NCBI GenBank assembly: GCA_964529905.1
Contig: CAZGXJ010000004.1
Span: forward strand, 1-61,943
Length of the DNA: 61,943 bases
Direction of reading: 5' to 3'
Source: an uncultured Nitrososphaeria archaeon
Lineage (GTDB): Archaea > Thermoproteota > Nitrososphaeria > Geothermarchaeales > JDFR-13
Part shown: piece by piece, positions 8,573 to 28,061 of the stretch
Position numbering within the stretch: position 1 is the first letter of the stretch
Layout: the number at the start of each line of letters is the position of its first letter
Made by a program: the position numbers and the translations under genes
Notes under the pieces: model-generated
Seen by the model: the letters and a program-made list of their open reading frames with translations, nothing else
The model's database searches: none
Told to the model about the DNA's origin: nothing

Positions 8573-9574
8573 TCAGTTTTTCCCTAATCTATATCCATCC
8601 ATTTCGTATATATACCTAGATGCAAACTCCTCAATAGAAGATATGTAGGGTATTAATTCTTCATATCGATCCCTCCTAACATAAAGCTCGAATGTCTCCC
8701 ATCTAATCTCTAGAAATTTAAACCCATTAACCTTAGCTTCATAATATGTCCCTATCATCACATCAGATAGACCATCTTTTATAGATCTTAGGGCCTCCAC
8801 ATGGCTATAGTATTCCATTCCATATCCATTTATCCTCCCCCTAAGATCATCTAGGTCTAGGCCTGATGTCTCAGCATATCTAATCAACTCTTCCTCCAGA
8901 TATATCCGAGAGCCTGAACCCCAAACCCTATTAGCCAATCTATATCCCCTCTTTATTAAATCCTCTACACCGTTGAAATCTATATCGCCTCTATATATCC
9001 AGCCAATCAATCTGTCATACCTAAATACATCCATCAATAGATTTTTAACTCCAAATAACTCTATTACCTCATTAGCCCCTGATAAATGTATAGATGCTAT
9101 ATCTCCATCGCCGATCAACACCTTAAATAGACCTATTAGACTACCTATAGCCCTATATTCCACATTTATTTTCAACTCACCACCCATGTACCTCGAGACC
9201 TTTCTAAGGAGTGGGTCATCGCTTCCAACAATTCTAAATGTAGGAGGAGATATATTTATGGAATCCAGATCTATATGTGGTTTGAGTGCTCTAATCAACT
9301 CAGATAGAATCCTTCTCCCATCATCCGTTAATGATATACCTCCTCTTCCCCTAACAAATCTAAATAGCTTGACCTGGAGCATCTCCTCAAGCCTCCTTAT
9401 ATATTCCCATGCCCTTGAATAGGGTATCCCCGTTATCTTAGAGGAGGTATATAGGCTATACCCCTCCAACATCCTTGAAATTAGGTATATCCCCCTAATA
9501 TCCAGGGCTCTCCTATCCCCAATATATATGACTGGCTCTAAACGTATATTTACACCATATTTACCTAGGTTCAT
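8573..9574 (-). CDS. ModE-type HTH fused to PBP-like oxyanion-binding domain (molybdate/tungstate-responsive regulator)
   Basis: N-terminal SLYTSSKITGIPYSRAWEYIRRLEE...RGRGG.SLT ModE/LysR HTH; C-terminal GSD.LL, GSL.GL, NR..GSGSR PBP motifs; divergent from tupA. Confidence 0.82.
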   Translation of the reverse strand: MNLGKYGVNIRLEPVIYIGDRRALDIRGIYLISRMLEGYSLYTSSKITGIPYSRAWEYIRRLEEMLQVKLFRFVRGRGGISLTDDGRRILSELIRALKPHIDLDSINISPPTFRIVGSDDPLLRKVSRYMGGELKINVEYRAIGSLIGLFKVLIGDGDIASIHLSGANEVIELFGVKNLLMDVFRYDRLIGWIYRGDIDFNGVEDLIKRGYRLANRVWGSGSRIYLEEELIRYAETSGLDLDDLRGRINGYGMEYYSHVEALRSIKDGLSDVMIGTYYEAKVNGFKFLEIRWETFELYVRRDRYEELIPYISSIEEFASRYIYEMDGYRLGKN

Positions 9575-9577
9575 ATA

Positions 9578-9611
9578 AAGATTAATTATCCGAATTCGGA
9601 TAATTAATCTT
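9578..9611. promoter_or_regulatory. Perfect 34-bp palindrome, candidate operator/bidirectional promoter
   Basis: AAGATTAATTATCCGAA-TTCGGATAATTAATCTT is its own reverse complement; each end lies 3 nt from a divergent start codon. Confidence 0.75.
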
Positions 9612-9614
9612 ATA

Positions 9615-10511
9615 ATGAATAGGTATGCTGGACTCGGGATATATAAATTAATTGTTTTAGCCGTAACGGTAGTGATCTTACTTGGGATATTCTACTACAT
9701 AGGTTATGGGAGGAGAGAGGTTAGGATAGCCACGACCACCTCTCTATATAATACTGGGCTTCTAGACTTTATAGTCGATAGTTTTAGGGAGAGGTATCCA
9801 GAGATAGATGTGAAGATCCTACCCCTAGGAAGTGGAGCCGCTTTGGAGACTGGTAGTAGGGGGGATGCAGACTTGGTTCTTGTACATGCACCTAAGCTTG
9901 AGAAGAGCTATATAGATATGGGTATATTGACGGCTCATAGGATAATAGCATATAATTACTTCATATTAGTAGGTCCTAAGGATGACCCTGCAAACGTAAG
10001 TAATCAAGAGTCTATAATTGACGCTTTTAAAGTGATTTATACGGCTGGGTCAATGGGTAAGGCCTACTTCATAAGTAGAGGAGATAGAAGTGGGACACAT
10101 ATCAAGGAACTCTCTATATGGTCTAAAATAGGGATAAAGCCGTCGGGAGAATGGTATATAGAAAGTGGGAGTGGAATGGCACAGACATTGATCATAGCCA
10201 ATGAGAAGGGGGGCTATACCTTATCAGATATTGGGACATACATAGCTTTAAAGGAGAATGGGAGGATAGATAATCTCGTAATACTATATAGTGGAGATGA
10301 TGAATTAATAAACATATATAGTATCTATCTCGTAAATCCAGAGAAAGTTGCTGGAGTAAATTATGGAGATGCATATATCCTATATAAATTCATAATCGAT
10401 AACATTAGGTATTTTATAGAGGAGTATAATTCTAAATACTCGGTTAAACTGTTCTACCCAGCCGATAATGAAGATATCCTTATGGATAAATGGTGGATGC
10501 TGGCGGGATGA
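9615..10511 (+). CDS. tupA: Tungstate ABC transporter substrate-binding protein
   Basis: N-terminal TM anchor; ATTTSLYNTGLL (TTTS TupA motif), LVHAP, FISRGD.SGTH, YTLSD.GTY. Confidence 0.92.
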   Translation: MNRYAGLGIYKLIVLAVTVVILLGIFYYIGYGRREVRIATTTSLYNTGLLDFIVDSFRERYPEIDVKILPLGSGAALETGSRGDADLVLVHAPKLEKSYIDMGILTAHRIIAYNYFILVGPKDDPANVSNQESIIDAFKVIYTAGSMGKAYFISRGDRSGTHIKELSIWSKIGIKPSGEWYIESGSGMAQTLIIANEKGGYTLSDIGTYIALKENGRIDNLVILYSGDDELINIYSIYLVNPEKVAGVNYGDAYILYKFIIDNIRYFIEEYNSKYSVKLFYPADNEDILMDKWWMLAG

Positions 10512-11154
10512 TACCATGCCATATGAAATATGGGATATAGCTATTAGAAGCATCTTCATCTCAGGATCAGCATCGATATTGGCCACTACATGGTCAATCC
10601 CCCTTGGCATATATCTAGGGATAACCAACAATAATCTATCTAGGATTGTGATATCCATTATAAATATCCTTATAGGTATACCCACGGTATTAATTGGTCT
10701 AATACTATACCTAATATTATCTAGAACCGGTCCACTCGGTTTCCTAAACCTATTATATACTCCATATGCCATGATCATCGGCCAGAGCATACTGGTAACA
10801 CCCCTTGTAATTTCCTTTGTATATGAGGTAGTAGCGGGGAAGTCGATCGACCTGATAGAGATGTTGAGGACATTTAACGCATCTAGAGGAGAGATGATTA
10901 AGATATTATATGAGGAATACGAGGATAGGATGTGGGGATCCGCCGTCATAGGATTCGAGAGAGCGTTAGGTGAGTTGGGTATAGCCCTCATGCTAGGGGG
11001 AAATATTAGAGGAGTGACGCGCGTATTTACAACGACAATAGCGTTAGAGGTTCAAAAAGGTATGTATGAATTAGCTATAGAATTAGGTGTAATACTACTA
11101 ATCCTCGACCTACTATTAGTATCTATAATACGTATACTAGGCTGGAGAAGATGA
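10468..11154 (+). CDS. tupB: Tungstate ABC transporter permease; likely start ATG 10516
   Basis: SRTGPLG.LNLLYTP.AMIIGQ, GF.RA..E.G.A.MLGGNIRG.TRV.TT.IALE motifs. Confidence 0.92.
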   Translation: MKISLWINGGCWRDDTMPYEIWDIAIRSIFISGSASILATTWSIPLGIYLGITNNNLSRIVISIINILIGIPTVLIGLILYLILSRTGPLGFLNLLYTPYAMIIGQSILVTPLVISFVYEVVAGKSIDLIEMLRTFNASRGEMIKILYEEYEDRMWGSAVIGFERALGELGIALMLGGNIRGVTRVFTTTIALEVQKGMYELAIELGVILLILDLLLVSIIRILGWRR

Positions 11155-11765
11155 TAGAGCTTATAAATGTTTCATTTAAATATACGGATAAGCTGGTTAT
11201 AAAAGATGTATCTGTAAAATGGGGCAGTGGATTACACCTGATTAAGGGTCCCAACGGTTCAGGTAAAACGACTATTTGTAAAATAATATCAGGTTTATTA
11301 CCTCCCGACAGGGGGTATGTATATATAGATGGGGTCGATGTATATAGTGGTGAATCGTCTAAAATATTGAAGGATGTAGTATATGTACATGACAAACCCG
11401 TAATTCTCAATAGGTCCGTATATGACAACCTTATCCTTGGTGCTAGACTACTAAAGAGGAATGTAAATAGGCTTAAAAATCTAGTAGAGTTTTTTGGACT
11501 ATATGATATACTAGATATAAATGCTTCTGAGTTATCAGCCGGATATAAACAGTTGATAAGTCTCTCAAGAGCATTTATAGTGAGACCGAGATATCTAATC
11601 CTAGATGAGCCATTCACAAATCTAGATACGAAGTTTAGGGATAAGGTTATTGAATATATTGTCAAGGAGTATAGGGAGAATACGGTTATAGTCGCTACAC
11701 ACACTACATATCTAGATAGATATGCAGATACAATTAGAAAAATTCATAAGGGTAAACTTGTCTAA
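11151..11765 (+). CDS. tupC: Tungstate ABC transporter ATPase
   Basis: GPNGSGKT, LSAG, LILDEP, ATH; operonic with tupAB. Confidence 0.85.
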   Translation: MIELINVSFKYTDKLVIKDVSVKWGSGLHLIKGPNGSGKTTICKIISGLLPPDRGYVYIDGVDVYSGESSKILKDVVYVHDKPVILNRSVYDNLILGARLLKRNVNRLKNLVEFFGLYDILDINASELSAGYKQLISLSRAFIVRPRYLILDEPFTNLDTKFRDKVIEYIVKEYRENTVIVATHTTYLDRYADTIRKIHKGKLV

Positions 11766-13073: not shown

Positions 13074-13604
13074 GTGGTAAAATTGGAAATACCAGTGGGG
13101 AAATGGCTACTATTAATAGATCTAGACGGAACATTATGGGATCATCTAGATATATCATCACTCAAGCCCCCCTTCAAAAAAATAGGTGAAGGGAAAATAA
13201 GGGATATAGATGGTGTGGAAGTAACTCTAAATAGGGATATTGTGGATCTGGTTAAATGGGCTAGGAGAAATGGAGCTATAACATCCACCCTATCCTGGAA
13301 CATACCCTGGAAGGCATATAAGGCGATAGAGACTTTCAGCATTATGAGTATTTTCGACTATATCACCGTGATGAATAGTGATAGAAAGGATGAGATGATT
13401 AAAGACCTATTGAATAAACTTAGGGAAATGGGGATATTGATAGACATATGTAGAATAGTCTATATAGATGATAGAGATATCCATATAAAGGAGATCTATA
13501 AGAATATAGGTAAAATATTCTTTCTACAATATGGAAGAGATTTTAGCGGATTCGAAGATGGTAGAGAGAGGATCTTAAAACATTTATCCACATGTAAAAA
13601 ATAG
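13074..13604 (+). CDS. Magnesium-dependent phosphatase-1 family (HAD IIIC)
   Basis: DLDGTLWDH motif I, SWN, YIDDR motif. Confidence 0.88.
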   Translation: MVKLEIPVGKWLLLIDLDGTLWDHLDISSLKPPFKKIGEGKIRDIDGVEVTLNRDIVDLVKWARRNGAITSTLSWNIPWKAYKAIETFSIMSIFDYITVMNSDRKDEMIKDLLNKLREMGILIDICRIVYIDDRDIHIKEIYKNIGKIFFLQYGRDFSGFEDGRERILKHLSTCKK

Positions 13605-13689
13605 GATTTGAACATATGTAGAAATATGGAAGTCAGTTGAATATCAATATACATGATTTATCCATGGAATAGCGAAAAATTATATTTAT

Positions 13690-15108
13690 ATGAAGATTCC
13701 TGAGGATGGACTAGACCGCGATAAAATCTTTGAAGATTTGAAGAAGATGGCTTCAAGAGATTTAGATCCTAAATCAGGTATGTTATTCTCACATATATAT
13801 GAAACTGGTGATGATAAGCTTTATGAGGTGGCAGTTGAAGCATATAAAATGTTTATGGATAAGACCATGTTAAACTTCACAGTATATCCCAGCATCCTAG
13901 ATATGGAGAATAGGATAATATCTATGGTCTCTAAACTCTTCCATGGTGAAAACCCTTCTGGAAATTTTACATATGGAGGTACTGAAAGCATTTTTATAGC
14001 TATGAAAGCCGCTAGAGACTACTATAGGCATATATATGGATATGATGAAAGGGTTAAGATTGTCATCCCCTATACAGGACACCCAGCCTTCATCAAGGCA
14101 GCTAAGTTTCTAGGCATTGAGATATCATATGCGAAAGTGGATGAATCATATGAAGTGGATATCGAGGATGTAAAGGGGTTACTCGACGGAAAAGCTATTA
14201 TATTAGTAGGTTCAGCACCATCCTATCCATATGGAGTAATTGACGATATAAAGGCGTTAAGTGAGATAGCGATGGAGAAAAACTACTGGTTACATGTAGA
14301 TGCGTGTATAGGTGGATTTATACTTCCCTTCTTCAAGATGTTGGGAGAAGATATTGATGATTTCGACTTTATATTAGAGGGAGTAAAATCCCTCTCAGCA
14401 GATCTCCACAAATATGGATATACACCTAAAGGTGCATCTGTCATACTATATAGGGATAGGGAATATAGAAAATACGGATTATATATAAATGCATCATGGC
14501 CTGGATATCCACTGGTAAACACCACTATATTGTCTACCAGGTCAGCTGGTCCCTTGGCCGCATCATATGCAGTATTAAACTATCTAGGTATAAAGGGATA
14601 TTTAAGGTATGCAAAGTCCATTCTAAATGCTAAGAATAAAATAATCAATGGATTGTCAAAAATGGGATTCCAAATAATTGGTAGACCTAAATCAAGTATT
14701 GTAGCATTTACATCTAGGGAGATCGACATATTCAAATTAGCTGATATATTACGTAGGTTGGGTTGGTATGTACAGCTACAACCCGGCTCAAAAAGTTTGG
14801 GTTTCCCTCCGTCAATCCATCTAACTATTTCACCGATACATGAGAGATTAATAGATGGATTCATAGAGGATGTTAAGAAGGGTATAGAGTTGATTGAGGA
14901 GGAGGGCTCCATAGATATTGGGAACATACTTTCTCTATTCGATCTTGAGATAAGCAAAATGTCAGATGCCTCAACATTAATGGATTTACTAGGGTTGAGG
15001 GAGATGGATTTCTCTAATATGGAGGTGATAAATAAATTGATCCATTACCTACCACCAGAGACCGTAGAAAATACGTTTTTAGAGATTATAAATCACCTAT
15101 ATACCTAA
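13690..15108 (+). CDS. Group II PLP-dependent decarboxylase / sphingosine-1-phosphate-lyase-like enzyme
   Basis: TYGGTESI, HPAF.KAA, SAPSYPYGVIDDI, LHVDACIGG, SADLHKYGY (PLP Lys), T..STRS. Confidence 0.88.
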   Translation: MKIPEDGLDRDKIFEDLKKMASRDLDPKSGMLFSHIYETGDDKLYEVAVEAYKMFMDKTMLNFTVYPSILDMENRIISMVSKLFHGENPSGNFTYGGTESIFIAMKAARDYYRHIYGYDERVKIVIPYTGHPAFIKAAKFLGIEISYAKVDESYEVDIEDVKGLLDGKAIILVGSAPSYPYGVIDDIKALSEIAMEKNYWLHVDACIGGFILPFFKMLGEDIDDFDFILEGVKSLSADLHKYGYTPKGASVILYRDREYRKYGLYINASWPGYPLVNTTILSTRSAGPLAASYAVLNYLGIKGYLRYAKSILNAKNKIINGLSKMGFQIIGRPKSSIVAFTSREIDIFKLADILRRLGWYVQLQPGSKSLGFPPSIHLTISPIHERLIDGFIEDVKKGIELIEEEGSIDIGNILSLFDLEISKMSDASTLMDLLGLREMDFSNMEVINKLIHYLPPETVENTFLEIINHLYT

Positions 15109-16637
15109 CCATTTAGACATCTATAGATATCCTTCAACCTATCATACATCCCATTAAATATAGTTTGGAGTTTTTGATATCTCCCCCTCTCACTCCTTTT
15201 AGGTTTGAAGGTCTTATCCATGGGTATATACCTAGCAGCATCCTGGAAACTTTTGTATATATTTAGTCCTACAGATGCTATTATGGCCGAGCCTCGAACT
15301 CCTGCGTTCTCAGGCTCAATGGGCCTCACCAACCTATTATTAAGAATATCTGAAATGATTTGGACCCAAATATCGGATTTTGCTCCTCCACCAACAATAT
15401 ATACTGGGCCGTTCCAAGGGATCTTCCTCTTAAAATATTGGTAGGCCCACCCTATGTTTAGGGCCACCCCCTCTAAAACAGCTCGTAATATATCTTCAAC
15501 TCCATATTCAAACCTCAAATTTAAGAGGCCACCGCCTAGATAGGGATCATCTATAGGAGCCCTCTCACCATACATCCATGGAAGGAATATAAGGTTTGAA
15601 TCCTTTACATCCATATCTTCAAGCATTTTATCGACATTCCTATAATCATCTATATTAAATAAATCCATGAAGTAGTCTAGGGCGGCTCCAGCTACTTCCT
15701 GCTCAGCTATAAATAGATATTTATCTGGTATAGCGCTATATAGAGTCCCCATGTAATGGGATATATCAAGAAGTCTCTTAGGCGTATGTGCAGCTATCCA
15801 GCTGCTCGTCCCAACATATATATGTGGAACACCATCCTCCACTGCTCCTGAGCCCAAAGCGGCGGTAGTTAGATCACCAGCACCTATGAATACTGGCAGG
15901 CCATCCCTAAGCCTAAGAATATCGAGAAGCTCACCATCTACATATCCAGCTATATCAATTGACCTACCTATTAGAGGTAGTTTAGATTCGTCGATTCCAT
16001 ATCTATCTAATAACTTTCTTGACCATTTAACTCTAGACCTAGTATCTGCAAGCCATGTAAGATGGGCTTCATCAGGACTTGTATAGATCCCCCCTGTAGC
16101 CCTATATATTAGGTAACCCTTTACATCTAGGAATTTATAGGTCGACCTATATATATCCGGCTCATTCTCCTTAATCCATAAGATCTTAGATAGAGGGTCC
16201 TTACCAGTCTTACTAGGCGCTCCACCAGTTATCCTTAGGAATTCAATCAACCTAAAGATATTATATCCAGATATTTTTATAACACCGCTAAACAATTCCC
16301 TTGGCAACCCCTTCCCCCTCTCATCAAGCCAGATAATCCCATTTCTAAGGGGATGGCCTTCAACATCTATAGGTATTACCCCAGCCATATGTGCAGTAAA
16401 TACCATCGACCTCAAATCCTTTATTACCTCCCTATCCGCAATACTATATAACTCACTAGCTAAGTATGTTATTTGACCCCATAGCCTATCTACATCTATC
16501 TCAGCATACCCAATTTTTGGATAGACTACCTCAGCCTTAACACTCTTGGTGTATATTGCCCTAAAATCCTTCATAGATACTATAGCCCCTTTAACGTTGG
16601 TGGTGCCCACATCAAAACAGAGAGTATATCCTGTCAT
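15105..16637 (-). CDS. FGGY-family carbohydrate kinase (xylulokinase-like)
   Basis: DVGTTNVKG, IIWLDER, GAGD, GTSSW, GERAP, LEGVA, GGGAKS. Confidence 0.9.
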   Translation of the reverse strand: MTGYTLCFDVGTTNVKGAIVSMKDFRAIYTKSVKAEVVYPKIGYAEIDVDRLWGQITYLASELYSIADREVIKDLRSMVFTAHMAGVIPIDVEGHPLRNGIIWLDERGKGLPRELFSGVIKISGYNIFRLIEFLRITGGAPSKTGKDPLSKILWIKENEPDIYRSTYKFLDVKGYLIYRATGGIYTSPDEAHLTWLADTRSRVKWSRKLLDRYGIDESKLPLIGRSIDIAGYVDGELLDILRLRDGLPVFIGAGDLTTAALGSGAVEDGVPHIYVGTSSWIAAHTPKRLLDISHYMGTLYSAIPDKYLFIAEQEVAGAALDYFMDLFNIDDYRNVDKMLEDMDVKDSNLIFLPWMYGERAPIDDPYLGGGLLNLRFEYGVEDILRAVLEGVALNIGWAYQYFKRKIPWNGPVYIVGGGAKSDIWVQIISDILNNRLVRPIEPENAGVRGSAIIASVGLNIYKSFQDAARYIPMDKTFKPKRSERGRYQKLQTIFNGMYDRLKDIYRCLNG

Positions 16638-16678
16638 ACCACTATAGAGAAAATTGGGGATTCCCTATATAACAGGTC

Positions 16679-18025
16679 TCAATCAAGGGGTTTACCCTTA
16701 GTCTCCGGTAGAAATATGGGTATGGTTACCATTAATATGAAACCTATAAATCCAAATATAAACATTGACCCGGCTAGAGAGAATATGTTGGAAGTAGCCC
16801 CCACTATAAAACCACCTAATGAAAGACCTCTTGCAATACTGAATGTCAAGGATACCGCTGTAGCCCTAACCCTCGTAGGGAATAACTCAGATGCCCATAT
16901 ACCATATAGGGAGTGGGCTGTAAAACCAAAGGGTATGATAAATATAAGGTAGAATGAGGACTCTACATCACCCATAATAAAGAGAATAGCACCAAATATT
17001 ATGGAGCCTAATAGGCCTATAGAGGATGAATATATAAATGCTTTCTTCCTACCAATATAATCACTTATAAAACCTACAATAGGTAGTGATAGACCTACAA
17101 ATAGCGATATTATTAGGATTATGCCACTAGCAATACTTACGTCGTATCCATACAACTCTGAGAGGAGAGTTGGCGCCCAGTCAACCCATGCATGGTAGGC
17201 GAATTCACTTCCCCAGAAGAGGATACTCGCAAGGACGGTTAATCTAAGGATCTTAGGAGATGATAACTCTTTAAAGATATCTCTACTTATCCCCTCTTCA
17301 TCGGACAATTCCAACTCTTGATACTTCCTCCATAGCTTAGATTCAGGTAATAAAATGGATAATATAGCTATAATAGGTATAGGATATAGAGCAATTAAAT
17401 ATGGCACTCTCCACCCATAAATTGGATAAAGTAGATAAACTATTCCTGCGCTGATGGCATATCCAATAATAAATGTGGAGTGTATCAACCCACCAAATAA
17501 ACCCCTATGTTTAGGTGAATAGGCTTCACTCAACAATGCATATCCAATACCCCATGAAACACCCATACCTGATAAGATCCTGAGTAGTGCCAATACAAAG
17601 AAGTTCGGTGAGAAATATGTAATAGCAGTAAGTATTGAATCCCATAGAACGGAATATATCAACGCTTTTTTCCTACCAAATCTATCTGCTAAATATCCAA
17701 ATAATAGGGCTCCAGGGACAGTTGCAATAAACTGTGCAGAAAATACGAAACCCATTAAGAATTTATCGACATTAAATTCCTCCATAATAGGTTCTGCCAA
17801 GAAATTCGTTAGAGTTAGTCCAACTGCATCATGGCTCCAGCCGATCATAGCTGCAACGAATATAAGGATCTTATCTTGTAGTGAATACTCATCTTTAGAT
17901 TCCATAATAGAATAATATTGTATTACAGATAGTAAATGAATCGAGGAAAACCAGGTTGCCTTATATACACCATATACCCTGCAACATATAATCAAGATGT
18001 GATATCCAGATACTGTGAATACCAA
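16679..18025 (-). CDS. Major facilitator superfamily transporter; likely start ATG 17905
   Basis: GYLADRFGRKK and SDYIGRKK motif A copies, SE.YSPKHRG, PES, SELFPTRVRA, PETKG. Confidence 0.9.
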   Translation of the reverse strand: MVFTVSGYHILIICCRVYGVYKATWFSSIHLLSVIQYYSIMESKDEYSLQDKILIFVAAMIGWSHDAVGLTLTNFLAEPIMEEFNVDKFLMGFVFSAQFIATVPGALLFGYLADRFGRKKALIYSVLWDSILTAITYFSPNFFVLALLRILSGMGVSWGIGYALLSEAYSPKHRGLFGGLIHSTFIIGYAISAGIVYLLYPIYGWRVPYLIALYPIPIIAILSILLPESKLWRKYQELELSDEEGISRDIFKELSSPKILRLTVLASILFWGSEFAYHAWVDWAPTLLSELYGYDVSIASGIILIISLFVGLSLPIVGFISDYIGRKKAFIYSSSIGLLGSIIFGAILFIMGDVESSFYLIFIIPFGFTAHSLYGIWASELFPTRVRATAVSLTFSIARGLSLGGFIVGATSNIFSLAGSMFIFGFIGFILMVTIPIFLPETKGKPLD

Positions 18026-18309: not shown

Positions 18310-18903
18310 TTACTCCGACAAAAATGATTCTATATGTCCGAATACCGCGTTGTATCCAGTAAATATAGCTAATATACCACCGACAAGTAGAAGTATTATG
18401 AATATATATGCCGAAAACTTCTTAGTAGTTTCAAATGCCAATAAGGGCGATAATAAAGCGGTAAAACCTATCGCCAAAAACATTAGACCTGAAAATACTG
18501 GTGACCTCGTTAATCCATATCTGAGTATAGAGACTCCATAGAAAACTATTGGAAGGCCTAAAGCAGATACTCCATAGAGAATACCTCTAAGATTTAAATT
18601 GAATATGTTTTGTAGGCCTAGTAATATAAATGCTAATCCAAATAACGGCCAAGGATCAGATAATATTATATTATATGGACCTGGAAGGGGCCAGGTGAAA
18701 CTAGCCCATAGACCCGTTATAAAGCTATATATTCCAATAGCTAGATAGTAGTAGCCCAAACCCCTATTCAACTCAAACAGCCTATCACCATACTTATCGG
18801 GCCTGATAAAATTAATCACAAGCCAATAAATAGTTATAAATAGTGATGCTCCCATCAACGTAAGCCAGAGATCGAGAAGATTTACAAAAGCCATTACCCC
18901 CAC
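18310..18903 (-). CDS. DUF981-like membrane protein
   Basis: Five to six TM segments with TWPLPGPYNI..SDPW and H near the C-terminus, as in DUF981. Confidence 0.75.
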   Translation of the reverse strand: MGVMAFVNLLDLWLTLMGASLFITIYWLVINFIRPDKYGDRLFELNRGLGYYYLAIGIYSFITGLWASFTWPLPGPYNIILSDPWPLFGLAFILLGLQNIFNLNLRGILYGVSALGLPIVFYGVSILRYGLTRSPVFSGLMFLAIGFTALLSPLLAFETTKKFSAYIFIILLLVGGILAIFTGYNAVFGHIESFLSE

Positions 18904-22406: not shown

Positions 22407-23165
22407 GTGTATATGAAGGAGATATTTAGGAAGGGGAGGACTATAATAGGATTCTCCATATATGATGCCTTCGGTGCATACATCTTAAAAGAAGTTGGGG
22501 ATATAGACTTTATAGTTATAGGTGATAGTGCATCGATGGTTTTAAAGGGATATGAAGATGTTAAACACGTCACAATAATGGAAATGATCGAATATTTTAA
22601 GACTGTGAAGAGGATTATAGATGATAAACCCGTATTCATAGATCTCCCCTATGGAACATATGGAGATATGGTAGACCATAGAGATACATTACATATTTTA
22701 AGGGATTTGGGGGTTGACGGGATCTTAGTAGAAGGGGTATATCCAAAGGTAATTAGAGATTCTCTGGATTTAGGCCTAGAATGTATAGTCCATCTAGGAT
22801 ATATGCCAAAATTCGATGAATATCCTAGGGTAATAGGTGAAGACGACTTTGACGACCTATTGAGACAAGTTAGATATGCCGAGGATCTTGGATGTATAGC
22901 AGTTAAGCTTGAATTAGTTAAGATGGATGTAGCTAGGAGAATAAGGGAGAGTATCTCTATACCAGTATTGGGTACAGGCTCGGGACCCTACGTAGATGGA
23001 CACATACTTGTTCTATATGACTTCCTAGGGATGACCCCAAAATTCAAACCTAGATTCGTTAGGATCTATATAGATATATTTAGGATGGGTGTGGAGGCGA
23101 CAAGGAGACTTGTTAGGGATATATTGGAGGGGAGATACCCAGATATAGATGAGTCATATGTTTAA
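22407..23165 (+). CDS. panB: 3-methyl-2-oxobutanoate hydroxymethyltransferase
   Basis: YD...A, VIGDS..MV..G, DLPYG, HLG..P, GTGSGP..DG..LV.YD.LG. Confidence 0.9.
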   Translation: MYMKEIFRKGRTIIGFSIYDAFGAYILKEVGDIDFIVIGDSASMVLKGYEDVKHVTIMEMIEYFKTVKRIIDDKPVFIDLPYGTYGDMVDHRDTLHILRDLGVDGILVEGVYPKVIRDSLDLGLECIVHLGYMPKFDEYPRVIGEDDFDDLLRQVRYAEDLGCIAVKLELVKMDVARRIRESISIPVLGTGSGPYVDGHILVLYDFLGMTPKFKPRFVRIYIDIFRMGVEATRRLVRDILEGRYPDIDESYV

Positions 23166-26576: not shown

Positions 26577-27638
26577 TTAAAATACTATTATCTGCCTCTT
26601 TAAAGCCCTACCTTCTTCAAGTCTCTTAAAAGCCTCATTTATCTCCTCCAACTTTATATGTTCAGTCAGCTTCCAATACTCTATAACTCCTTTTATACCC
26701 AACTGTCCTAGTTCATATAGCTCCATTAAAGAACCATATAACACGGTCTGTATGGATATCTCGTTTATCACCATACGGTGTATAGGTATAGGTGGGCCAT
26801 ACTCATTTCCAAGACCGACTAACACATATACCCCTCCTGGTGCCACCAAGTCTAGATATGTTGATATGGTCTTCTCCAGACCAACGAAATCTATAACGGC
26901 TTTTGGTGACTCACCTCCAAGTATATTAAGCAACTCCCTCTTAGGATCCACTTTAGATGCATCTATCAAGAAATCCATCCCATCTCTAAGATCTATCAAC
27001 TCATTAGCTAACCTGAGCTTATCCGGATTTATATCAACTGCGACAACTGGATTCGGCAAAAGCTTCCTAACGGTTTCCAATCCAAACATACCTGTCCCGC
27101 CCAAACCAATTATAAGTATGTATTCATCGGAAGATAGAAATCTAGATGCCTTTTTAACCGCTCTATACGCTGTTAAACCCGCATCACTTAAGATGGCTGC
27201 CGAAGCAAGATCTCTAATACCATCCACCTTAATTAAATATCTATAATGAGGGACAAGCATATACTCGGCATATCCACCATTATACATTATAATGCCTCCG
27301 GGTGTCCTAAGCCCACATATCTGATGGAGACCTGTCAAAGCATATCTATCATCCTCCATACAGTAAAAACTATATACTAGCACCTCAGTACCTTCGGAGA
27401 TATAGCTTGAGGCTGAGTCACCCACCTCCTCTACAATACCGGATACTTCATGTCCTAGTATAAATGGGAATGTAACAGGCAACTCATCCGAGAACTCTCC
27501 CTTTATTAGATGTAGATCACTATGACATACACCGGATCCCTTAACCCTAACCAAAACCTCATTTCCCACTGGCCTAGGCTTCTCAACATCCTCAATTTTG
27601 AATTCCTGGTTATATCCATATAATACCGCGGCCTTCAA
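26577..27638 (-). CDS. adh: Zn-dependent medium-chain alcohol dehydrogenase
   Basis: GVCHSDLH, LGHE, GGYAEY, DAG.TAY.A, GLGG.G, VD. Confidence 0.92.
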   Translation of the reverse strand: MKAAVLYGYNQEFKIEDVEKPRPVGNEVLVRVKGSGVCHSDLHLIKGEFSDELPVTFPFILGHEVSGIVEEVGDSASSYISEGTEVLVYSFYCMEDDRYALTGLHQICGLRTPGGIIMYNGGYAEYMLVPHYRYLIKVDGIRDLASAAILSDAGLTAYRAVKKASRFLSSDEYILIIGLGGTGMFGLETVRKLLPNPVVAVDINPDKLRLANELIDLRDGMDFLIDASKVDPKRELLNILGGESPKAVIDFVGLEKTISTYLDLVAPGGVYVLVGLGNEYGPPIPIHRMVINEISIQTVLYGSLMELYELGQLGIKGVIEYWKLTEHIKLEEINEAFKRLEEGRALKRQIIVF

Positions 27639-28061
27639 TTAGATCCCCACCTTCTTGGCGATATTCACCAACTCAATAGCTGCTTTTGGATATCTTAAGA
27701 TTGTGGAGAAATTACCCTTAACAAGCCTAATCTTCCTCCTAACTAGGGCATTAACCGGGTTCATACCCTTCTCAATCAACTCCCGCCAATCATCATATTT
27801 ACCAGAAATTATGAAAGGAGCTTCATTACCTGTATATTCACTGAGAAATTTAGCCTCAAGACATCTACCATTCTCAAGTTTAACTAGTATAGCTGGTCTA
27901 TCCCCATACTTAGCCTTTAGGTCTGGTGGGAGATCCTCGACTGTGAAGAGGATTGGCCAGACCCAACCCTGTGCACTCCTCCTATATTCCTCAGATTCAT
28001 TTATATATTTACAGAATATATCCGCCCATTCTTGGGAAGGGAAGTCAGGCATCATATACAC
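27639..28061 (-). CDS. SCP2 sterol/lipid-binding domain protein
   Basis: FPSQEW...F...IN....Y...A..W; ISG.Y..W..L......P..AL....I.L.KG; coupled to adh. Confidence 0.85.
   Translation of the reverse strand: MYMMPDFPSQEWADIFCKYINESEEYRRSAQGWVWPILFTVEDLPPDLKAKYGDRPAILVKLENGRCLEAKFLSEYTGNEAPFIISGKYDDWRELIEKGMNPVNALVRRKIRLVKGNFSTILRYPKAAIELVNIAKKVGI

Follow-up and report, generated by a model that had tools for sequence, protein, structure and literature searches.

A conserved pair of FGGY kinase and S1P-lyase-like enzyme in thermophilic archaea, a candidate module for the breakdown of sphingosine-like amino-alcohols

Sphingosine-1-phosphate (S1P) lyases (SPLs), for which StSPL of Symbiobacterium thermophilum (3MAD, 3MAU), human SGPL1 (4Q6R, 8AYF), yeast Dpl1 (3MC6), and S1PL2021 of Burkholderia pseudomallei (5K1R) serve here as references, require the phosphate group of their substrate (PMC6148460). 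In eukaryotes, long-chain bases are degraded by sphingosine kinase or Lcb4/5, S1P lyase, a phosphatase, and an aldehyde dehydrogenase. The natural role of the prokaryotic S1P lyases, StSPL included, has been described as unknown (PMC3148216), and many archaea make no sphingolipids (PMC6973233). Here we analyze a 61,943-nucleotide (nt) stretch of DNA (the window; contig CAZGXJ010000004.1) from a metagenome-assembled genome of Candidatus Geothermarchaeota, in which the gene for a pyridoxal phosphate (PLP)-dependent enzyme resembling S1P lyases (472 amino acids [aa]; 13690-15108, + strand) lies next to that for an FGGY-family kinase (510 aa; 15105-16637, - strand). The two genes form a real conserved module, and we favor, with somewhat more confidence than doubt, the interpretation that it is a two-enzyme catabolic module, in which the kinase phosphorylates a 2-amino-1,3-diol, most likely a long-chain sphingosine-like base, and the PLP enzyme cleaves it. 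The proposed logic is the same as in the eukaryotic route, from which the archaeal locus differs in that the kinase has the FGGY (actin-like) rather than the diacylglycerol-kinase fold, the phosphatase encoded nearby is a soluble HAD protein, and the host is an archaeon.

All four open reading frames (ORFs) that the initial annotation recognized at 13074-18025 were confirmed, with the MDP-1-type phosphatase gene located 5' of the lyase gene and a convergent 4-nt overlap between the lyase and kinase genes (15105-15108) that contains the TAA of the former and the TAG of the latter. No PF00282 protein other than the lyase, and no second protein of the kinase's Pfam family, was found in G000, the incomplete genome to which the window belongs. 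At 719 kb and 84% marker completeness, G000 is smaller than the genomes of its congeners (1.1-1.3 Mb), so that absences from it mean little and much accessory DNA is probably missing.

A kinase and a lyase of the window's type are adjacent in 25 archaeal loci spanning Geothermarchaeota, Archaeoglobi, Thermoprotei, Acidilobaceae, Sulfolobus acidocaldarius, and Pyrobaculum aerophilum, compared with no lyase homolog near any of 66 more distantly related FGGY kinases (23-33% identity; flanks of at most 7 kb, in some cases shortened where the contig ends); these and the following linkage counts include kin, are not independent, and do not constitute a statistical test. The two genes converge at some loci, whereas at others (L137, L149, L157) they point in the same direction. 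Among 61 Archaeoglobi genomes, the orthologous lyase is encoded in 15 and adjoined by the kinase in 14, with 6 of the 20 kinase-bearing genomes lacking an adjacent lyase; among 300 Thermoproteota genomes, the kinase clade is present in 10, seven of which carry the lyase beside it. Both genes are absent from the congeners G002 and G004, which retain the flanking genes. Pairwise distances for the two proteins are correlated (Spearman 0.87 for 39 pairs, a value inflated by shared descent), and the S. acidocaldarius pair is 51% and 48% identical to that of the window. The conserved unit is the FGGY kinase plus the PLP enzyme.

The PLP enzyme scored 249.6 bits against human S1P lyase, 135 bits against MfnA, and 87 bits against plant glutamate decarboxylase (GAD). 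Its AlphaFold model (predicted local distance difference test score 92.8) aligned with StSPL at a Z score of 52.9 and a root-mean-square deviation of 1.9, with 431 residues aligned over positions 1-472, and with MfnA at a Z score of 44.4 over residues 1-400 only. The enzyme thus has the full-length SPL fold, including the C-terminal extension (Z scores of 50-53 against the reference lyases, at ~31-36% identity in structural alignments), and is nearer to SPLs than to MfnA or GAD; like StSPL, it is soluble, and it differs from SPLs in a QPGS insertion near positions 362-372. The MfnA L-tyrosine/L-aspartate decarboxylases (3F9T, 6JY1) and GadA/GadB share the group II decarboxylase fold, but lack the C-terminal extension and have Ala, Ile, Tyr-Leu, and Arg in place of the SPL-type C206, K247, W270-P-G, and H377 of the window enzyme. 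H377 is present in 120 of 120 homologs, and W270-P-G-Y stands in place of the Tyr-Leu loop, so that the enzyme has neither this loop nor the MfnA arginine; the arginine, R371, whose position was fixed via the R371A entry 6M4Y, has a role in carboxylate binding. Matches to the NCBIfam models for MfnA (TIGR03812, 262 bits; cutoff, 299.4) and GAD (TIGR01788, 110 bits; cutoff, 380.4) fall below both cutoffs. In the best trees, the archaeal branch is sister to canonical SPL-type proteins (SH-aLRT [Shimodaira-Hasegawa-like approximate likelihood ratio test] support of 93 and 95), although the topology test given below did not reject its grouping with MfnA.

The PLP-binding site of StSPL comprises G168, T169, H201, D274, C276, H310, K311, and S353 (PMC6148460, Table 3). 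The equivalents of the first seven (G97, T98, H131, D204, C206, H240, and K241) are kept in all 25 linked loci, and that of S353 is Thr or Ser, so that the PLP site is that of an SPL. The pocket that accommodates the substrate phosphate in StSPL is formed by A103, Y105, N126, H129, and K317, with Y482 at the entry (PMC6148460). Two of these five residues are retained in the linked loci, namely, Y105 (Y37) and K317 (Lys or Arg at 247), and the window enzyme does not possess the complete SPL phosphate pocket; accordingly, its substrate may differ from S1P. Known SPLs are not uniform at these positions either, with Gln replacing H129 in B. pseudomallei and Thr found in place of A103, but Asp at the H129 site occurs in none of 17 canonical sequences. 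Lys58 is nearly invariant, and H35 together with K58 may replace the lost phosphate contact. Judging from these sequence features, the enzyme probably works like an S1P lyase while lacking one of the defining traits of the family.

The kinase matches FGGY_N (106 bits) and FGGY_C (80 bits) and conserves D9 and D255, but falls below every NCBIfam equivalog cutoff (XylB, 234.5 against 380 bits; GntK, 152 against 649; GlpK, 120 against 590). At the first two of the specificity positions described for FGGY kinases (PMC3245297), it has Met84-Ala85, as opposed to Met-His in xylulokinase and Arg-Glu in glycerol kinase, and thus carries neither of these two specificity signatures. XylB, GntK, and other FGGY kinases (2ITM, 3GBT, 3HZ6) share the fold and the catalytic aspartates; the closest solved structures are at most 24% identical, with a template modeling score of about 0.8-0.85. 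No diacylglycerol kinase catalytic domain was detected, the Pfam and fold searches of the kinase returning FGGY only, so that the protein may act like a sphingosine kinase but is not a member of that family.

The lyase-linked kinases form one clade (support of 99, FastTree) with two halves, one encoded beside the archaeal lyase type and the other beside canonical lyases. The clade is set apart from characterized FGGY kinases by Met-Ala, by an insertion of ~9 extra residues within 108-139 (hydrophobic count of 13 versus 7 in the outgroup; net charge of +3 versus 0), modeled as a short hairpin followed by a helix at 127-137, and by the GKD and EQE motifs (G145-K146-D147 and E312-Q313-E314), D189, and W354. 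The split cuts across taxonomy: G017, which belongs to the window's class, has a canonical pair, and Archaeoglobus has the window's type. The canonical lyase of G017 scored 497 bits against StSPL and has all pocket residues intact; the canonical pair is also found in Thermoplasmatota, Desulfobacteraceae, and Chloroflexota, and the kinase is adjacent in seven of the nine closest lyases of this set, the other two lying on fragmented contigs. Given that S1P lyases need the substrate phosphate, the occurrence of sister kinases beside canonical lyases with an intact phosphate pocket counts in favor of phosphorylation followed by cleavage. This linkage and the grouping with SPLs lend support, at the level of sequence comparison, to the core idea of the initial annotation, namely, that an amino-alcohol would be phosphorylated and then cleaved by the PLP lyase.

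Under this interpretation, the FGGY kinase would use ATP to phosphorylate the C1 hydroxyl of a scavenged 2-amino-1,3-diol, and the PLP enzyme would form an aldimine with the C2 amine and cleave the C2-C3 bond by a retro-aldol reaction, yielding phosphoethanolamine and an aldehyde, which would then be oxidized and activated to acyl-CoA. MDP-1 may dephosphorylate the product or excess intermediate, and an MFS (major facilitator superfamily) protein may import the base or export a product. The kinase would then be a long-chain-base kinase unrelated in fold to the eukaryotic sphingosine kinases, and many thermophilic archaea, including S. acidocaldarius, would probably phosphorylate and cut scavenged sphingosine-like amino-alcohols.

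The gene neighborhoods provide some clues to the substrate. Near the canonical loci, we found genes for SCP2, aldehyde dehydrogenase, aldehyde:ferredoxin oxidoreductase, acyl-CoA ligase, and phosphoesterase, and in S. acidocaldarius, an acyl-CoA ligase gene is located three genes beyond the lyase. Judging by gene order, the S. acidocaldarius pair probably corresponds to Saci_1058 and Saci_1057, and Saci_1054 to the acyl-CoA ligase gene of this locus. Saci_1058 and the acyl-CoA synthetase Saci_1054 are both up-regulated under nutrient excess, and the former is listed as a sugar kinase in the expression table of that study (PMC11486757), the one paper found to list it. A search for neutral ceramidase returned no match in any genome, controls included, and is uninformative. 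The basic, hydrophobic insertion of the kinase and the Mpo1-like gene next to a sister-kinase operon, described below, are further hints of a lipid. On balance, the evidence leans somewhat toward a lipid-like (sphingoid) substrate over a free short polyol.

Several observations weigh against the proposed phosphorylation and cleavage of a sphingosine-like base by the window pair. Three of the five phosphate residues are changed (A103 to H35, N126 to T59, and H129 to Asp or Asn at 62, Asn in the window), and the entry residue Y482 aligns with N448; a terminal Leu-Tyr considered as its counterpart was dropped on the basis of this alignment. Asp at the H129 site is the state seen in MfnA and GAD, and Y273, which is invariant, might serve as a proton donor of the decarboxylase type. 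The approximately unbiased (AU) test did not reject the grouping of the branch with MfnA (p 0.055, from quick trees with one GAD outgroup and without StSPL), and the helix at 127-137 of the kinase is only moderately amphipathic in the window (rank 112 of 500 windows). In the sample of 300 Thermoproteota genomes, 22 of the 30 with a related lyase do not have the kinase. The strongest lipid-related neighbors are associated with the canonical branch rather than that of the window, acyl-CoA ligase and aldehyde:ferredoxin oxidoreductase were not found in the incomplete window genome, and the proposal presupposes that sphingoid bases are available in hot habitats.

Three alternatives bear on these observations. 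The pair might carry out the same two steps on a short soluble amino-polyol imported by the MFS protein, such as serinol, a 2-amino-2-deoxy-alditol, or the aminopentanetetrol head group of a lipid, a version near that of the initial annotation. Aminopentanetetrol lipids are common in hot-spring Aquificota. The remodeled lyase pocket suits such a substrate, as does the normal preference of FGGY kinases for C3-C7 polyols and ketoses (PMC3245297); yet, the Met-Ala signature is unlike that of xylulokinase or glycerol kinase, and the hydrophobic insertion is also present in the sister kinases encoded beside canonical S1P lyases. In many lineages, the pair has an MFS gene as a neighbor, but these genes are not orthologous to one another, and the sister kinases described below, which accompany an aminotransferase and an aldolase or lie near RuBisCO-like and saccharopine-dehydrogenase-like genes, would suit sugar-phosphate chemistry, although a transaminase and aldolase route might suit phytosphingosine as well. 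We regard this alternative as unlikely. It is quite improbable that a hydroxy-amino acid such as serine or threonine is the kinase substrate, with the phospho-amino acid then decarboxylated by the PLP enzyme to phosphoethanolamine or aminopropanol phosphate in the manner of PduX and CobD. The bond broken on loss of CO2 is the one cleaved in the lyase reaction, Y37, K247, K58, and H35 could still hold a phosphate, the Asp or Asn at the H129 site is decarboxylase-like, and Y273 is invariant in the branch; against this stand H377 in place of MfnA R371 and the GAD arginine, the absent Tyr-Leu loop, the service of sister kinases to canonical lyases, and the annotated neighborhoods, in which no recurring cobamide or lipid-synthesis genes were noticed.

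The least credible alternative is a plain amino acid decarboxylase, converting Asp to beta-alanine for CoA or acting on Glu or Tyr, that merely lies beside an ordinary xylulokinase. That the enzyme is the only PF00282 protein found in the window genome, with a panB-like gene 7 kb away, MfnA as the best NCBIfam match, and a borderline AU test, would be in line with this possibility. However, a separate MfnA-tier gene is present in 15 of the 15 Archaeoglobi genomes with the ortholog, and G002 and G004 (89-91% complete) encode PanB and phosphopantothenate synthetase with no PF00282 match; given these separate MfnA-tier genes and the CoA-pathway genes that occur without PF00282, a beta-alanine role is not favored. 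Moreover, the kinase misses the XylB cutoff and signature, and the two genes diverge in parallel and are jointly gained or lost. The combination that the initial annotation had singled out as fatal to its proposal, a plain decarboxylase with no co-occurrence with the kinase, is not what was observed: the best trees place the enzyme with S1P lyases rather than with MfnA or GAD, and the kinase accompanies it.

Returning to the kinase-then-lyase module, relatives of its two components occur in other contexts. Some sister kinases share an operon with a class III aminotransferase and a class II aldolase, usually with an MFS gene and without a lyase (L201-L205; L217:8992-16067); on a Burkholderia ambifaria plasmid, such an operon is followed by genes for a short-chain dehydrogenase/reductase and an aldehyde dehydrogenase and adjoins a fragment of the Mpo1-like family, which is named for 2-hydroxypalmitate oxidation. 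The partners of these kinases all act on an amine, either removing or using it, in line with an amino-diol phosphate, with the chain length left unfixed. Other related kinases lie beside RuBisCO-like, saccharopine-dehydrogenase-like, or class III aminotransferase genes (L108, L162, L200, L207-L209, L223). Loss of the ammonium-binding acid (E312, E314) in the aminotransferase-linked kinases was considered as further evidence and dropped, because these proteins have gained E85.

Two types of lyase paralog lack a neighboring kinase. A Thermoproteota sub-branch of ~500 aa proteins has Phe at the Y105 site and Ile at the K317 site in 13 of 13 sequences, with no kinase nearby (L143-L146, L148, L151-L153, L155, L156, L167, L168, L170), and probably consists of PLP enzymes for an unphosphorylated substrate; the concerted loss fits a role of both residues in handling a phosphorylated substrate, while representing one clade and one event. 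A second paralog type is co-transcribed with an MFS gene, again with no kinase nearby, and keeps Y105, N126, and K317 where tabulated (L131, L147, L150, L154, L158, L159, L164, L169, L228-L231); this type could take up a substrate that is charged beforehand. On plasmids of Nonomuraea, Embleya, Burkholderia gladioli, and Rhizobium, no FGGY kinase is encoded within 8 kb of the SPL-like genes, and on those of B. gladioli (L140:6771-17236), the SPL-like gene, with an altered pocket, follows a serC-like gene in a polyketide synthase cluster. In G184 (L177:7557-8993), an internal TAG interrupts the canonical lyase gene adjoining that of the kinase, and the neighboring MFS gene is split too. In one Archaeoglobus locus (L215:2207-3490), the pair is located ~4.5 kb from a Piwi-domain (Argonaute) gene, with no link implied.

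The two remaining genes of the locus are less firmly attached to the module. The MDP-1-type HAD-IIIC phosphatase (176 aa; 13074-13604, + strand) matches TIGR01685 at 127 bits (cutoff, 53.75) and contains the DLDGT and DD motifs, as expected for the magnesium-dependent phosphatase MDP-1, with which it has the HAD-IIIC motifs in common; what ties it to the module is its recurring position. It lies next to the pair or within a few genes of it in seven genomes, Geothermarchaeota among them (G001, G003, G008, G012, G017, G101, G168) and likewise in the Thermoplasmatota-type loci L189, L190, L212, and L213, and in L189 and L212, the phosphatase, MFS, lyase, and kinase genes are all co-directional. 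Elsewhere, MDP-1 is encoded away from the pair (far from it in S. acidocaldarius; also G005 and G011). Of 301 Thermoproteota genomes, 43 encode it, most of them without the kinase, and it keeps its position in congeners that do not have the pair. MDP-1 is therefore plausibly a recurrent, non-dedicated partner.

The MFS transporter gene (MFS_1; 16679-17905, - strand) is located upstream of the kinase gene, co-directional with it and separated by a 41-nt gap. Its ORF runs to a TTG at 18025, and the G003 ortholog is 407 aa long; the gene probably starts at the ATG at 17905, giving a product of 408 aa. The protein is 65% identical to that encoded at the same place in G003, has no counterpart at that place in G001, and scores at most 31 bits against the MFS types found beside the pair in Archaeoglobus, Sulfolobus, Pyrobaculum, and Thermoplasmatota. 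The best NCBIfam match, far below the cutoff, is an aromatic acid/H+ symporter. Thus, to the extent that gene content indicates, an MFS neighbor is a recurring theme and the window's MFS gene is genus-local, with an uncertain role. Of the four-gene route put forward initially, the kinase and lyase core is supported; the MFS part is less well supported, its ortholog adjoining the pair in one congener only and unrelated types elsewhere, and the case for MDP-1 is mixed, the protein being adjacent in several distant lineages, but mostly found without the kinase and kept where the pair is missing.

In the literature searched, most of it accessible without subscription, we found no paper on the kinase-lyase pairing or the archaeal enzymes and no report of a kinase supplying prokaryotic S1P lyases, and gene context is not a topic of the B. 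pseudomallei SPL paper. The module names a candidate kinase for the prokaryotic S1P lyases and extends the route to archaea, and it would correct annotations as 'xylulokinase' and 'decarboxylase' that are widespread in S. acidocaldarius, Archaeoglobus, Geoglobus, and Pyrobaculum. More tentatively, and with doubt still prevailing, we suggest that thermophilic archaea possess a dedicated breakdown of the amino-diol lipid backbones of other organisms, via a long-chain-base kinase of the sugar-kinase fold and an archaeal S1P-lyase branch with a rebuilt phosphate pocket and perhaps a new substrate, the kinase-free paralogs being new PLP aldolases. If true, carbon cycling in hot springs and vents would include a further route, the scavenging of lipids, and long-chain-base kinases would gain a new fold. 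S. acidocaldarius, which carries the pair, is genetically tractable, making the claim directly testable.

Some further features of the window deserve mention. A scan for sigma-70 promoters found fewer sites than expected by chance; such a scan is ill-suited to archaea. At 8573-11765, sequence inspection revealed a tungstate-type ABC (ATP-binding cassette) transporter and a divergent ModE-like regulator, in a genome that, incomplete as it is, yielded no AFOR_C match. A divergent PanB-like gene (157 bits) is located at 22407-23165 (+ strand), and a second, canonical PanB (370-380 bits) is encoded elsewhere in the genomes of the congeners G001 and G003. A zinc alcohol dehydrogenase gene (26577-28061, - strand), ~10 kb from the kinase gene, is preceded by a 140-aa ORF, the product of which is 35% identical to that of an SCP2-domain gene near the pair in L190. 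Finally, a DUF981 membrane protein is encoded near the pair both in the window (18310-18903, - strand) and in P. aerophilum (L137:4954-5586).

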